Positions 10,076 through 57,701 of a stretch of 64,000 nucleotides of DNA are shown here, one piece after another; position 1 is the first letter of the stretch, and every line of letters starts with the position of its first letter. A model generated the notes under the pieces. It ran no database searches, was not told the DNA's origin, and saw only the letters and a list, made by a program, of their open reading frames with translations. This DNA is from Acidimicrobiia bacterium (GTDB lineage Bacteria > Actinomycetota > Acidimicrobiia > Spongiisociales > ZC4RG35): positions 15,782-79,781 of the forward strand of contig JBBDQN010000030.1 of NCBI GenBank assembly GCA_040905905.1. The letters run 5' to 3'. A program made the position numbers and the translations under genes.

Positions 10076-10086
10076 TGCAAAACCCC

Positions 10087-10134
10087 GCTTTTATCACCCG
10101 GACCCACCGAAAAACGGTGGGTCCAGGTCGCAAG
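10087..10134. repeat. Palindromic intergenic repeat, copy A (diverged copy).
   Basis: GCTTTTATCACCCGGACCCACCG-AAAAA-CGGTGGGTCCAGGTCGCAAG. The left arm matches the family consensus, and the outer right arm has diverged. Confidence 0.6.
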
Positions 10135-10160
10135 AGTGGGTAGGGCGGTATTCCTGACCT

Positions 10161-11243: not shown

Positions 11244-11266
11244 CCGACAACCCTAGGTCCAACGTC

Positions 11267-11318
11267 GCTTTTATCACCCAGACCCGTCGTATAACGACGG
11301 GTCTGGGTGATAAAACGG
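11267..11318. repeat. Palindromic intergenic repeat, copy B. This copy is a perfect palindrome.
   Basis: GCTTTTATCACCCAGACCCGTCG-TATAA-CGACGGGTCTGGGTGATAAAACGG. It sits in the divergent region between 11243 and 11323. Confidence 0.75.
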
Positions 11319-11322
11319 GGTA

Positions 11323-12123
11323 ATGGCAGTTGATGCGCTCTTTCACCGTGACGGCGAACTCTTCATTCCGACGGAACTCACCAGGGGAGGGTGGTCGGAC
11401 GACTCCCAACATGGGAGCCCACCTTCGGGGCTTTTGGCCCGGGCCATAGAGCAGGTGCCAACGGCGGTTCCGATGCAAGTGGTCCGCTTCACCATCGACC
11501 TCTTTCGGGCGGTGCCGCTGTCGCCATTGACGGTGCAGACCACGGTTCGTCGCGATGGCAAGCGAATCCAGGTGGTCGACGCGTTCCTCTACGCCGGAGA
11601 GCTTGAGGTTGGCAGGGTGTCTTCACTCAAGATCCGCCTGGCGGATCTCGACCTCGATGACCGTGACGAAGCCCCCTGGGTGCAGCCGGGCGATCCGGAA
11701 GCGGCCGAACCTATGGCCTGGGCCGATGTCTTCGGAACCCGATCGGGAACCACGCGTTTCCACTACGACGCGGTCGAGATCCGCACCTTCGACAACAGTT
11801 TCCTGGAAATGGGGCCAGGTGTGTCGTGGTTTCGGTTGCTGTTTCCGGTGGTGGCCGGGGAGGAACCGAGTTCTTTTGTCCGTTTGGCGACTATCGCCGA
11901 CATGTCAAACGGCAATTCCCAGGCCCTTGATCCCCGGCGGTGGATCTACGTGAATCCCGACATCACTCTCTACGCTCACCGTCTCCCGGTGGACGAATGG
12001 ATCGGGATGCGCTCGGCGGCCTTCCAGCACCACACCGGCATCGGGTTAGCGGATACCCGTGTGTTCGATCGACAGGGTCCCCTGGGGCGGATCAATCAGG
12101 CCCAGCTGCTCGATCACCGCTAG
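11323..12123 (+). CDS. Thioesterase-like superfamily protein (possibly a double hot-dog, acyl-CoA thioesterase-like).
   Basis: The length and overall sequence pattern resemble TesB-like thioesterase family proteins. This is a weak assignment. Confidence 0.4.
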   Translation: MAVDALFHRDGELFIPTELTRGGWSDDSQHGSPPSGLLARAIEQVPTAVPMQVVRFTIDLFRAVPLSPLTVQTTVRRDGKRIQVVDAFLYAGELEVGRVSSLKIRLADLDLDDRDEAPWVQPGDPEAAEPMAWADVFGTRSGTTRFHYDAVEIRTFDNSFLEMGPGVSWFRLLFPVVAGEEPSSFVRLATIADMSNGNSQALDPRRWIYVNPDITLYAHRLPVDEWIGMRSAAFQHHTGIGLADTRVFDRQGPLGRINQAQLLDHR

Positions 12124-18833: not shown

Positions 18834-19928
18834 GTGTCCGCTGAGATCGCCCGCTTTTTTGACACCCGGGCCGCCTACACGATGTTTGTCAACGCCACCG
18901 ACGAGAAGTCGGTCGTGGCCGATCGGGTGGGTGCCGAACTGGCCAACATCGACGTCTCTCACCCCGGCCTCCGGGTCTTCGATGCCGGCATGGGCGATGG
19001 TGCACTTCTCGCCCATCTCATGCGTCGGATGCATCAGCGGTTCCCCTTCATTCCATGGTTGATCGTGGCCAAGGAGATCAGCATCGAAGACGTCCGTCAG
19101 GCCCTGGCCCGGCTGCCCGACCGTTTCCTTGAACACCCGGAGATGGTCTTTATCGTGACCAATCTTCCGTTTCGCGATGCTCCCGCTCTGGCTGACCCGG
19201 GTCTGGCCTGGCGGCAGGTGGCGCTGAAGGGTTCCACCACTCGTGAATTCACGGATCAGATCGAGAACCTCTACCCGCAACTCGCCATCGATTGGGAAGT
19301 CAGGACAAGCGAGGTGACCGGGAACCCTCTCAATGTTCGCCCGGCGGCGCTGGTGCTCTATCGCCAGGACCGCGGGTTCTTGGTCGACCCCTTGATTCCG
19401 CGGCCAGGGCGGACCGAGCTCAGATATGACCTGGTGGTGGCGTCACAGGCGTATCGGGCCCGTACTCCAGTACAGCGAAAGGTCAAGAGTGTCCTGGTCC
19501 CGCTGGCCCGCAGCCTGGCCCCGGGGGGCCGGCTGGTAGGGGTGCAGGCACGTGGCGACGACCCCGGTCTGGAGATCATCCGCCGGGTTTGGCCCGACGA
19601 GGATCCCTTCCCCCATCGGCGGACTGCGATCCTCGCCGAAGCCCGCCGGCAACTAGCCGGGGAACCGGGCCTGGTCTACCCCGATCTGAGCGACGAGGAG
19701 TCGGTGTTCCGGTTCCGGCTCCACACAATGCCGTCGGTCGAGGCCGAGCACATCGGAACCTCTTCCGTAGTGGCGGCCTGGAACGCTGCCACCTATGTTG
19801 CCCAGATCGACGAGAAACGTCTGGCGGAGGCGACGGCGACCGGTGGCTATCTCGACGCGACCCGGCGCGTAATGGAGCAACACGGACAAATCTGGTGGAA
19901 CGACGAGGCCTATCTAATCACCCGTTAG
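18834..19928 (+). CDS. Hypothetical protein with a possible Rossmann-fold methyltransferase-like N-terminal domain.
   Basis: VFDAGMGDGALL resembles MTase motif I. An acidic residue sits in LIVAKEIS, and VTNLPF resembles a degenerate (D/N)PP(F/Y) motif IV. Weak assignment. Confidence 0.45.
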   Translation: MSAEIARFFDTRAAYTMFVNATDEKSVVADRVGAELANIDVSHPGLRVFDAGMGDGALLAHLMRRMHQRFPFIPWLIVAKEISIEDVRQALARLPDRFLEHPEMVFIVTNLPFRDAPALADPGLAWRQVALKGSTTREFTDQIENLYPQLAIDWEVRTSEVTGNPLNVRPAALVLYRQDRGFLVDPLIPRPGRTELRYDLVVASQAYRARTPVQRKVKSVLVPLARSLAPGGRLVGVQARGDDPGLEIIRRVWPDEDPFPHRRTAILAEARRQLAGEPGLVYPDLSDEESVFRFRLHTMPSVEAEHIGTSSVVAAWNAATYVAQIDEKRLAEATATGGYLDATRRVMEQHGQIWWNDEAYLITR

Positions 19929-19931
19929 CCC

Positions 19932-19981
19932 GCTTTAGCGACCCAGACCCATCGCCAAGCGATGGGTCTGGGTGATAAAAA
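19932..19981. repeat. Palindromic intergenic repeat, copy C. The outer left arm is variant.
   Basis: GCTTTAGCGACCCAGACCCATCG-CCAAG-CGATGGGTCTGGGTGATAAAAAGG. It lies between the stop at 19928 and the gabT start. Confidence 0.7.
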
Positions 19982-20004
19982 GGCAGTATGAGGAGAGAGA
20001 AATT

Positions 20005-33498: not shown

Positions 33499-33552
33499 CG
33501 ACGCGCCCCCGGCCCCCCCCGGGGGGCGGGGGGGGGCCCGTCGCGTGGTTTT
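33499..33552 (+). terminator. G/C homopolymer-run palindrome-like hairpin followed by TTTT, between xylF and xylH. It is a possible intra-operon attenuator or terminator.
   Basis: CGACGCGCCCCCGGCCCCCCCCGGGGGGCGGGGGGGGGCCCGTCGCG followed by TGGTTTT. Confidence 0.4.
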
Positions 33553-56010: not shown

Positions 56011-57204
56011 GTGCGTCGTCTCAACATTTCCCAAGCACGCCGTATTGCCCTGGCGGCACAAGGCTTTGCTGACCCGCGGCCACAGGGAAAGGTCGACGTT
56101 CGCCACCTGCGCCGAGTTGTTGATCGAATGGGAGTTGTGCAGATCGACTCCGTCAACGTGGTGGCCCGGGCTCACTACCTTCCCTTTTTTGCTCGGCTGG
56201 GGAGCTATCCCACCGAACTACTCGATCGGATGGCCTGGAGCGAGCACAGAGAGTTGATCGAGTATTGGGCCCACATGGCGGCACTGATCCCGATCGAGGA
56301 TTGGCCGCTGTTCCGGCACCGGATGGACAGGGAGCACGTCTGGCGTGATATCGCCAGGCTCCTCGAGAGCAACCCGGAGGGGGTCTCCGAGATCATGGAT
56401 CAGGTCCGCCGGCGCGGTCCCACCCGGCCGTCTGATCTTGACGATCATCACGAAACCGGGAAGGGGCCCTGGTGGGACTGGTCGTTTGCCAAAACCGCAC
56501 TGGAGTGGCTCTTCTACAAGGGTGAGCTGACCGTTCCGAAACGGGCCAATTTCGTTCGGTTCTACGACCTCCCCGAGCGGGTCCTCCCCGACTCGATCCT
56601 GGCCGTCGAACTAAGCGAGGAGGAGCAGCGCCGAGAGCTTGTTCGCAAGGCTCTTCGTCACTGCGGGGTCGGCACATTGAGCGATCTCGCCGATTACTAC
56701 CGCCAATCCAATGCCCCCTGTGTGCCGCTGATCAACGACCTCGTCAAGGCAGGGGAAGCGGTCGAGGTGGAGGTGACCAGTTGGAAAGAGAAGGCTTACC
56801 TCGATCCCGCCGCCGCCGTGCCTCGTCGTGTCGAGGGGGTGGCTTTCCTGGGTCCCTTCGACCCGGTGATCTGGTTTCGGCCGCGGGCCGAGCGGCTATT
56901 CGACTTCCACTATCGGATCGAGATCTACACCCCTGCCCCCAAACGGATCTACGGGTACTACGTGTTCGCCATCCTCCTCGACGGCGAATTGGTGGGCCGG
57001 ATCGATCTCAAAGCCGATCGTCAGGCAGGGATCCTGCGGGTCCGGGGCGCCTACACCGAAGAAGGGGTGGAGCCGACCCGGGTCGCCCCTCCCGTCGTCA
57101 CCGAACTGGAGACGATGGCGACCTGGCTGGGGCTGAACGACGTCTCCGTGGAAAAAAAAGGAAACCTGGCAACTGCGCTTTTATCACCCAGACCCATCGT
57201 TTGA
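56011..57204 (+). CDS. Winged-helix DNA-binding protein of the YcaQ/AlkZ family (putative crosslink-repair DNA glycosylase).
   Basis: A roughly 400-aa protein with the characteristic N-terminal ALAAQGF...VQIDSVNVVARAHYLPFFARLG region. The last 8 codons and the stop lie inside palindromic repeat D. Confidence 0.6.
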   Translation: MRRLNISQARRIALAAQGFADPRPQGKVDVRHLRRVVDRMGVVQIDSVNVVARAHYLPFFARLGSYPTELLDRMAWSEHRELIEYWAHMAALIPIEDWPLFRHRMDREHVWRDIARLLESNPEGVSEIMDQVRRRGPTRPSDLDDHHETGKGPWWDWSFAKTALEWLFYKGELTVPKRANFVRFYDLPERVLPDSILAVELSEEEQRRELVRKALRHCGVGTLSDLADYYRQSNAPCVPLINDLVKAGEAVEVEVTSWKEKAYLDPAAAVPRRVEGVAFLGPFDPVIWFRPRAERLFDFHYRIEIYTPAPKRIYGYYVFAILLDGELVGRIDLKADRQAGILRVRGAYTEEGVEPTRVAPPVVTELETMATWLGLNDVSVEKKGNLATALLSPRPIV

Positions 57205-57229
57205 CGATGGGTCTGGGTGATAAAAACGG
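57177..57229. repeat. Palindromic intergenic repeat, copy D. It overlaps the 3' end of the YcaQ-like CDS.
   Basis: GCGCTTTTATCACCCAGACCCATCG-TTTGA-CGATGGGTCTGGGTGATAAAAACGG. The TGA stop of the upstream gene sits in the 5-nt loop. Confidence 0.75.
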
Positions 57230-57236
57230 TGTTTGG

Positions 57237-57701
57237 TTACCCCGCCAAGGTTTCGTCGGCCAGGGTCTTGCGGAAGGCGGCCAGCTTTGCGGTGAGGTCG
57301 GGGTCGCCGATGGCGAGGATCGCCACAGCCAACAGGGCGGCGTTGGCAGCCCCATCCACGGCCACCGTGGCCACCGGGATGCCTGTGGGCATTTGCACGG
57401 TGGACAACAACGAGTCGAGTCCATCCAGGGAGACCGCCAGCGGTACGCCGATCACCGGTAGCAGCGACTTGGCCGCCATGACTCCAGCCAGATGAGCGGC
57501 TTTGCCAGCCCCGGCGATGATGACAGCGAACCCCCGATCGGCGGCGGCCGTGGCAAAGGCGATTGCCTCGTCGGGGGTCTTGTGGGCGGAGAGCACCCGG
57601 GTTTCATGCTCAACGCCGAAGCGGTCCAGGATCTGTCGGGCCTTCTCCATGACGGGACGATCAGAGCCTGAACCCATCAGAATGGCGACTTTCTTGTTCA
57701 T
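57237..57701 (-). CDS. purE: 5-(carboxyamino)imidazole ribonucleotide mutase.
   Basis: MNKKVAILMGSGSDRPVMEKA...AGKAAHLAGVMAAKSLLPVIGVP. The start overlaps the purD stop as ATGA. Confidence 0.85.
   Translation of the reverse strand: MNKKVAILMGSGSDRPVMEKARQILDRFGVEHETRVLSAHKTPDEAIAFATAAADRGFAVIIAGAGKAAHLAGVMAAKSLLPVIGVPLAVSLDGLDSLLSTVQMPTGIPVATVAVDGAANAALLAVAILAIGDPDLTAKLAAFRKTLADETLAG

Follow-up and report, generated by a model that had tools for sequence, protein, structure and literature searches.

How does a gene come to end inside a palindromic repeat, and which part of its protein does the repeat then dictate? The question is raised by one locus in a 64-kb stretch of DNA from an uncultured Acidimicrobiia lineage (contig JBBDQN010000030.1), called here the window; all coordinates are window positions, and 60 open reading frames (ORFs) of the window were checked by Pfam. 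At this locus a gene for an AlkZ/YcaQ-like DNA glycosylase and the purE gene converge on a palindrome, copy D, which, as judged from comparison of orthologous sequences, supplies the last residues of the glycosylase and its stop codon. [quoted passage not shown] The junction is made up of the following features.

56011–57204, + strand: gene of the AlkZ/YcaQ-like DNA glycosylase, 397 aa with the putative start given in the ORF list, with stop codon TGA at 57202–57204
57170–57235, no strand assigned: palindromic repeat copy D, full extent, matched by the hidden Markov model of the family (nhmmer, E=4e-20)
57179–57199, + strand: perfect left arm of copy D, TTTTATCACCCAGACCCATCG, encoding (L390)-L-S-P-R-P-I-(V397)
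57200–57204, + strand: loop of copy D, TTTGA, with the TGA stop as its last three bases (57202–57204)
57205–57225, + strand: perfect right arm of copy D, CGATGGGTCTGGGTGATAAAA, non-coding
57237–57701, − strand: purE (AIR carboxylase; Pfam PF00731, AIRC, E=3.5e-59), with stop codon TAA at 57239–57237

By its Pfam match the host gene is that of a full-length AlkZ/YcaQ-like glycosylase: PF06224 (AlkZ-like) covered residues 37–372 with E=6e-69 and profile positions 1–329 of 329. The protein also aligned over residues 4–377 with a solved homologue, PDB 9zd6_A (E=3.5e-100), and 8000 homologues were retrieved. The gene is convergent with purE, which is its neighbour at the orthologous loci examined as well. 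Within 57140–57260 the gene end reads GTG GAA AAA AAA GGA AAC CTG GCA ACT GCG CTT TTA TCA, followed by CCC AGA CCC ATC GTT TGA CGATGGGTCTGGGTGATAAAAACGGTGTTTGG TTA. Direct reading shows the arms of copy D to be complementary at 21/21 positions around a 5-nt loop; with mismatches allowed, an inverted-repeat search extended them to 57171–57200 and 57204–57233 (30 nt, 90% complementary). The repeat occupies all the space from L386/A387 of the AlkZ-like protein to the purE stop codon, and the stop-to-stop gap of 32 nt is nearly all right arm. The first-pass annotation had located the stop of the gene inside the 5-nt loop, as we read it too. It had also counted ALLSPRPIV as the last eight codons: these residues are indeed arm-encoded, but there are nine of them, and the perfect arm accounts for the stretch from part of L390 to V397.

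The claim that the repeat rewrites the C-terminus was examined with the 120 best homologues, the junction DNA of 13 orthologous loci and, for conservation, an alignment of 45 sequences (contigs of relatives are denoted by L numbers and homologous proteins by P numbers). The motif V-E-K/R-K-G-N-L-A-x-A-L is general among the 120 homologues; the 45 aligned sequences all share G384 and L386, and at least 90% of them keep L390. After ‘AL’ most homologues carry 3–4 unrelated residues (AKAV, RKVV, ARVS etc.), giving ends of the form ...ALxKxx*. The tail ALLSPRPIV occurs among the 120 only in P0001, P0011–13, P0015 and P0016, and the DNA of the P0015 contigs (L001–3) and of the P0001 contig (L152) has the repeat at the same place and in the same frame. 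Two further proteins, P0039 and P0055, end in ...L-F-I-T; in their DNA (L004, L005, L159) this repeat occupies the junction too, with one extra T before ATCACC, so that the arm is read CTT TTT ATC ACC TAG, with TAG in the left arm where the consensus has CAG. The right-hand boundary of the repeat in these contigs, GTTTGG adjoining the purE stop, is the same as in the window lineage.

Orthologues lacking the repeat show what the gene end looks like without it. In P0066 and P0067 (L009, L158) the gene ends ...GCG CTC TGA (...NLASAL*), 3 nt from the purE stop; L006, L008, L160 and L161 are repeat-free with ordinary tails; and the P0005 locus, repeat-free as well, has a native tail and a gap of only 12 nt. 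In relatives the spacing of AlkZ-like and purE ranges from a 4-nt overlap to a distance of 15 nt. Among the orthologues read at the DNA level, none without the repeat carries the LLSPRPIV tail. We thus agree with the earlier claim of a rewritten C-terminus: the tail is ALLSPRPIV where the repeat is read in this frame, LFIT where it is read in the other, and neither where there is no repeat, and the alignment of orthologues, which could have shown the tail persisting without the repeat, did not. The residues that are new from the repeat are 391–397 (LSPRPIV), while everything up to L390 belongs to the native motif KGNLAxAL; the C-terminal peptide including the repeat-encoded tail is GNLATALLSPRPIV.

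One could also suppose that the tail is native and that the palindrome evolved in place, its likeness to the other copies being coincidental or the other copies being derived from the AlkZ–purE locus. The outer-arm codons (A-T-A-L) do fit the native motif, but nothing further does; more than 30 copies share the 30-nt arms, most homologues have no such tail, and in the sister lineage this DNA is translated in a different frame. We regard this reading as refuted by the homologue tails, the junction DNA and the repeat-family copies, and give it practically no credence.

Two other junctions are of interest in their own right. In the repeat-free L161 (2683–2794) the AlkZ–purE spacer is 112 nt long with a tandem direct repeat, CTCGCCACCGAGTAACT x2. 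In L007 (1948–1997; GCA_035281425.1, an Acidimicrobiia metagenome-assembled genome) the tail of the AlkZ ORF contains the whole of a perfect 50-bp palindrome of unrelated sequence, GTTTTGGCGCGTAAAGGTGACGCCA|TGGCGTCACCTTTACGCGCCAAAAC; the palindrome is translated in full as 18 added residues (..SVLARKGDAMASPLRAKTR), and the ORF overlaps purE by 4 nt. The presence of an unrelated palindrome at the same junction indicates that capture of palindromes by the end of the AlkZ gene is recurrent.

The added residues are predicted to be a floppy appendage outside the fold, because the Pfam domain ends at residue 372, the PDB alignment ends at 377 and model confidence drops past 390. In the AlphaFold model (45 homologues) the predicted local distance difference test score was 96 for residues 381–390, 60 for 391–397 and <50 for 395–397, with a helix at 387–391 followed by coil.

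The place of the stop depends on small departures of the repeat from its consensus. In the frame used at copy D the repeat has no stop other than that in the loop, and with most other loops found in the family (e.g. TAAAA, TTTTA) the ORF would extend about 95 codons antisense through purE; the frame used in L004 meets no stop anywhere in the consensus repeat. The nearest stop is thus a departure from consensus in either lineage, which fits selection for a short tail, and the stops were presumably fixed by selection after capture. Against this, the TAG variant is also present, compensated, in an unrelated copy (L131).

A homopolymer precedes the repeat:

57151–57159, + strand: codons GAA AAA AAA for E381-K382-K383, containing a run of eight A (A8, 57152–57159), read as native coding sequence outside the repeat

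The first-pass annotation had taken this run to be compositionally foreign and, together with the repeat, a sign of insertion. The run is real, and it is the only A or T run of at least 8 in the 64 kb; by its position in the motif it is native Glu-Lys-Lys coding sequence, encoding the conserved E-K-K of VEKKGNLAxAL. The same residues are spelled GAAAAGAAA in the repeat-free L009 and L158, GAGAAGAAG in L004 and GAAAAGAAG in L159. GAA makes up 35% of Glu codons and AAA 31% of Lys codons, minority but not rare choices, so the all-A spelling is about a 1-in-30 synonymous outcome. Five independent assemblies (window, L001, L002, L003, L152) agree on A8, and the conserved GNLAxAL follows in frame, so the tract is not an assembly error and does not belong to an insertion. 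Of the earlier proposal that an inserted element brought a new stop, the origin of the stop in the repeat is upheld, the arrival by insertion is presumptive, and the argument from A8 has to be dropped.

The run followed by a hairpin could be suspected of yielding an alternative C-terminus, either as a signal for programmed −1 frameshifting or through phase-variable slippage. In the zero frame A AAA AAA formally has the shape of an X XXY YYZ heptamer; downstream of it the outer arm of the hairpin begins after 11 nt and the perfect arm after 19 nt, and no A/T run in the window is longer. The usual spacer of −1 frameshift signals is 5–9 nt, however, and the one found here is longer; the E-K-K that the run encodes is conserved and is written with non-slippery synonymous codons in L004, L159, L009 and L158; and the length of the run is identical in the five assemblies. 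The −1 frame (..KKRKPGNCAFITQ..) would run about 100 codons antisense through purE, to 57461, while an A7 frame would stop at TGATAA in the right arm, and neither product bears a sign of conservation. What is found at A8 is a heptamer that is present but not conserved, with a long spacer, and we consider recoding or slippage at this site very unlikely.

The AlkZ-like gene lies within a large purine-biosynthesis neighbourhood (40132–60204, by Pfam) with unrelated genes interspersed, itself included. The purine genes are AIRS (purM-like), amidophosphoribosyltransferase-like, FGAM synthase parts including PurS, SAICAR synthase, adenylosuccinate lyase, purE, GARS and adenylosuccinate synthetase. 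The order purB-AlkZ-purE is kept in relatives whose contigs extend to purB. The AlkZ-like gene appeared mosaic in comparison with L001: its flanks, including both gene ends, are 86–88% identical, while from the middle (56211–56849, about 640 bp) only a 120-nt piece aligns, at 76%. In the AlkZ-like protein tree the window protein groups with P0002, P0004 and P0008, and in the purB and purE trees the window groups with L001. These observations suggest that the middle of the gene was replaced by recombination or is a hypervariable segment.

That copy D belongs to a repeat family follows from its counterparts. The 21-mer of its arm has 6 window matches at three or fewer mismatches versus 0.02 expected, a non-chance result, and the window contains four copies (A, B, C and D) in 64 kb. 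The three others are these:

10081–10142, no strand assigned: repeat copy A, with decayed distal right arm, between the convergent pirin (+) and Vgb-lyase-like (−) genes
11259–11323, no strand assigned: repeat copy B, with perfect 22-bp arms, between divergent genes
19925–19990, no strand assigned: repeat copy C, with one outer arm of the second type (GCTTTAGCG), between co-directional genes

The orthologue of copy A is intact in L146 and L147, and copy C has orthologues in L138 and L132. Metagenome contigs were scanned with a 22-base palindromic pattern, ACCCRGACCCNNCGN{3,7}CGNNGGGTCYGGGT; 28 contigs were returned, 26 of which carry members of the family, and a profile search of the retrieved contigs with nhmmer added diverged copies. 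With orthologous sites merged we count about 20 distinct repeat sites. From an alignment of 25 copies (A1) we derived a consensus of about 66 nt, CCAACCGCGCTTTTATC-ACCCAGACCCRYCG-N5-CGRYGGGTCTGGGT-GATAAAAGCGCGGTTGG, which with its loop reads CCAACCGCGCTTTTATC ACCCAGACCCGTCG TAAAA CGACGGGTCTGGGT CGCnAAAGCGGGG.T.GG. The family's variable part is the loop (e.g. TAAAA, TTTTA, TTTTC, GAATC, CCAAG). Two discrete forms of the outer right arm occur: GATAAAAGCG is fully paired with the left arm, and CGC(G/T)AAAGCG leaves a 4x4 internal loop; the second form, also written CGCGAAAGCG, contains the motif GCGAAAGC, reportedly an exceptionally stable DNA mini-hairpin in the work of Hirao et al. of 1989. Elements are symmetric or mixed, and none has the second form on both sides. 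Copy C (19925–19990) differs from its orthologue at L138 5062–5127, in a 95%-identical genome, by a 4-nt outer-arm block (GATA versus CGCT) and by four of the five loop bases, a pattern more like that of conversion from another copy than that of point mutation.

The predicted hairpin is maintained by compensated substitutions. Covariation was tested in the 25 copies at the two stem positions that the search pattern left free: pair 35/47 was GC in 13 copies, AU in 9 and other in 3 (Fisher p=7e-5; p=0.03 with one copy per site), and pair 36/46 was UA in 16, CG in 5 and other in 4 (p=0.003; p=0.09 with one copy per site). Diverged copies found without the pattern add compensated pairs, e.g. CACCTAGACCC/GGGTCTAGGT in L131. 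Shuffled sequence gave far less stable predicted folds than the repeat hairpins, whose z ranges from −4.8 to −8.1; the RNA fold predicted for copy D has −57.4 kcal/mol with z=−6.7 on the + strand, and −61.9 kcal/mol with z=−8.1 on the − strand.

This pairing bears on the possibility that the palindromes are operators for a dimeric DNA-binding protein, forming a regulon, or are bound by a nucleoid or topology protein. In A1 the arm core ATCACCCAGACCC does not vary, unlike the loop and the top of the stem, and positions are conserved in relatives; yet the search pattern itself accounts in part for the constancy of the core. Operator half-sites are far shorter than arms of 31 nt, the compensatory changes keep an intrastrand pairing that a duplex operator does not need, the adjacent genes are functionally unrelated, and tandem copies exist. 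Taken together, this makes a protein-binding function quite improbable.

Searches for known relatives of the family returned little. The whole window had no Rfam match at gathering thresholds, and literature searches on the arm sequence, on palindromic repeats of Acidimicrobiia and on REPs with stop codons gave no description of the family. A scan of a genome collection with the 15-mer TTATCACCCRGACCC gave, among the matches listed, chance matches in unrelated phyla and one Acidimicrobiia contig, L036; that contig ends inside a repeat copy (2795–2820), consistent with assemblies breaking at repeats. Several arrangements of repeats were also seen. L131 (3558–3686) carries two copies in direct tandem with 2 nt between them, and a tRNA T-arm-like sequence, GGATTTGAACCC, follows just downstream. 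In L141 (3201–3872) a 163-aa gene whose product has a signal-peptide/lipobox-like N-terminus lies between two inverted copies; the layout is that expected of a gene for a REP-associated tyrosine transposase (RAYT), but the protein is lipoprotein-like, not a transposase. A palindrome of another kind, made of G/C homopolymers (CCCCCGGCCCCCCCCGGGGGGCGGGGGGGG, with C8 and G9 runs), is found in the window at 33504–33545 between the genes of a periplasmic sugar-binding protein and its permease.

The contexts of the repeat sites were taken from a codon-usage gene caller trained on these contigs and are approximate, with Pfam checks where possible. About 6 sites are in convergent, about 9 in co-directional and about 3 in divergent intergenic regions, a split indistinguishable from random 1:2:1, and about 15 of 18 adjoin at least one gene 3′ end. 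Spacers are short, with a coding density of about 95% by these approximate gene calls, and outer arms often abut or contain the stop codons of neighbour genes. Apart from such arm overlaps with ORF ends all copies are intergenic; D and its orthologues are the only sites where an ORF runs into the repeat core. The genes next to copies are functionally unrelated (pirin, thioesterase, aminotransferase, AlkZ, purE, ABC transporters). At the co-directional sites of asymmetric copies the type-2 arm was upstream in 6/7, a result that is not significant and depends on the heuristic gene calls.

There is a different explanation to consider: the repeats may be host-functional RNA 3′-end hairpins that terminate or stabilize transcripts, with copy D serving both convergent genes. 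It is favoured by the very stable hairpins predicted on both strands, by the share of sites adjoining a 3′ end and by the conservation of positions in diverged relatives. Also, canonical stem-plus-T-run terminators are not enriched in the genome (11 versus 13.9 expected in 20 kb), so other hairpins might do termination. At D itself the complement of A8 forms a U-tract (U8) on the purE-sense strand, and the minimum free energy fold of the − strand extends the stem, which is interrupted, by GAAACCU/AGGUUUC, pairing the last codons of purE (GAAACCUUGGC) with the GNLA codons of AlkZ (GCCAGGUUUC) and ending 1 nt before U8. Copy D on the purE strand is thus a possible intrinsic terminator, by its predicted fold, for a purD-purE transcript inside the AlkZ coding end.

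For the family as a whole the picture is different. About 3 of 18 sites, copy B included, lie between divergent starts, and the split over contexts fits the random 1:2:1; the consensus order T-run/stem/A-run is the reverse of that of a terminator; and a GC-rich stem followed directly by a U-tract at gene 3′ ends, as in Rho-independent terminators, is not a family property, no conserved U-tract following the stem. A scan for canonical terminators found none in 56900–57500. The U8 arrangement is specific to this locus, being absent in L004 and L159 (GAGAAGAAG or GAAAAGAAG), and the flanks of other copies are not complementary beyond chance (P=0.2). The latter result, obtained from the flanks of 22 copies, which exceeded shuffled pairings in no way, also disposes of the idea that the repeat as a general rule inserts into the loops of pre-existing hairpins. 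We take a role at transcript ends to be a lesser though serious possibility; it is compatible with copy D being a dispersed repeat.

A further step would be to see in the family a conserved functional class of hairpins of this Acidimicrobiia lineage and not selfish DNA. Occupation of sites across relatives diverged by 18–24%, and the switching of the outer-arm states GATAAAAGCG and CGCGAAAGCG as blocks between 95%-identical genomes, point that way. If so, the loop stop of copy D and the U8 behind its extended stem would together act as a composite device, one that ends the purD-purE transcript inside the AlkZ coding end and couples AlkZ termination to hairpin formation. We consider this doubtful. 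A general excess of conservation of orthologous copies over flanking coding DNA was looked for and rejected: the elements are 71–100% identical and the flanks 70–97%, with copy C less conserved than its own flanks and copy D versus L001 the exception (65/65 identical, flanks 91%).

We return to copy D as a dispersed REP/MITE-like repeat that captured a gene end, which we hold to be the best explanation. In such a scenario, AlkZ-like and purE converge with almost no spacer, and in one clade the repeat came to occupy the junction; the AlkZ frame continues through the left arm to the first available stop, here the loop TGA, and, in the sister lineage with one T different in the T-run, the TAG in the left arm. 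The sequence LSPRPIV is dictated by the repeat consensus and replaces a native tail of 0–4 residues; it would be a disordered appendage that the enzyme tolerates. The overlap of repeat and gene is likely neutral or nearly so. The arrival of the repeat by insertion, and its mode of spread, are inferred.

Several observations count against this explanation. All four window copies are also found at orthologous sites of relatives (L132, L138, L146, L147, L152) with flanking DNA 76–95% identical; such occupation implies no recent mobility, and selection could keep the family. Neither a transposase nor a RAYT was found among the 60 window ORFs by Pfam or next to copies in the other loci, and in alignment A1 neither a GT[AG]G head nor an evident target-site duplication was seen. 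Comparison of the empty L009 site with the filled site likewise gave no clean duplication, and we know of no parent insertion sequence. Furthermore, for the AlkZ–purE site the purB and purE trees give ((window,L001),(L009,L158)),(L004,L159), a topology for which one gain with one loss (in L009/L158) and two gains are equally parsimonious. The empty site of L009/L158 (CCTCCGCGCT...TGG) resembles the outer arms of the repeat (CCAACCGCGCT...TTGG) at 9/12 bases. The same resemblance counts for one old gain, as do the identical right junction and a left junction differing by a single base; against one old gain, the L009 sequence is not derivable by simple deletion.

For annotation pipelines the consequence is that the 397-aa AlkZ-like protein has seven final residues derived from a repeat, and its tail should not be taken as a feature of the AlkZ family. 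The AlkZ–purE junction is a compact natural experiment in which the same repeat is read in two frames to two stops (loop TGA, arm TAG), close relatives add a state without the repeat, and in one relative a perfect 50-bp palindrome of unrelated sequence is translated there. The hairpin family of Acidimicrobiia itself, with its covarying stem and arms that switch type as blocks, appears to be undescribed. A complete genome of this lineage would allow the family to be used in a search for the mobilizing enzyme.

Among known systems the closest are REP sequences and REPINs, which are mobilized by RAYT tyrosine transposases (PMC2817692). The present family behaves, in its sequence features, like these or like small MITE-like repeats: its members are short, dispersed, extragenic hairpins, single or in tandem, found in all intergenic contexts, homogenized among copies and conserved within the lineage, with pairing maintained across copies. 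As GC-rich imperfect extragenic palindromes with a loop of 3–5 nt they match the REP description. The definition of REPs associated with RAYTs includes a conserved 5′ head GT(A/G)G directly before the palindrome (PMC2817692, Nunvar et al. 2010); here there is no GTAG/GTGG at either end, and the 25-copy consensus starts with CCAACCGCGCTTTTATC. Arms reach 31 nt here, whereas the tabulated REP sequences have about 20–37 nt and come without exception from proteobacterial hosts (PMC2817692); the present host is of an actinobacterial class. Also unlike REPs and REPINs, the arms are not themselves palindromes, and no RAYT gene was found in the 64 kb or beside copies, the gene between inverted copies in L141 being lipoprotein-like. 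The REP class has >100 copies per genome; the 64 kb studied here contain 4. Membership in the REP/RAYT class is thus not established. With respect to MITEs, the whole element is an inverted repeat, and A1 shows no evident direct repeat at its ends.

That palindromic repeats are translated is already known, and the AlkZ case is a clear gene-end capture with no new principle; a gene ending inside a repeat is a well-documented, ordinary side effect of REP/MITE-like elements. MITE-type repeats are known to have fused in frame with host ORFs, the Rickettsia palindromic elements (RPEs) among them (PMC10969869). Common to RPEs and copy D is a palindromic repeat within a host protein-coding sequence whose extra peptide is tolerated. 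RPEs, however, have about 150 bp, are inserted internally and encode a conserved peptide in many genes (PMC10969869), whereas here one of about 20 sites is translated, into seven extreme C-terminal residues, in a frame that varies by lineage.

Comparable too are the mycobacterial interspersed repetitive units (MIRUs), actinobacterial tandem direct repeats whose ends overlap neighbouring stop or start codons, and the terminator-like repeat TRIT, conserved hairpins at gene 3′ ends. The likeness lies in being dispersed actinobacterial intergenic repeats at gene ends; there is no sequence similarity, and the elements described here are single palindromes that also lie between divergent genes. The E. 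coli REPs located within about 15 nt of a stop codon, which reportedly stall ribosomes and trigger trans-translation (work of Liang, Rudd and Deutscher in 2015), offer another parallel. In both cases a stable repeat hairpin lies at a stop codon, where termination and hairpin formation must interfere; in copy D the stop is inside the hairpin loop itself, so that a ribosome reaching it would have to melt the whole left arm.

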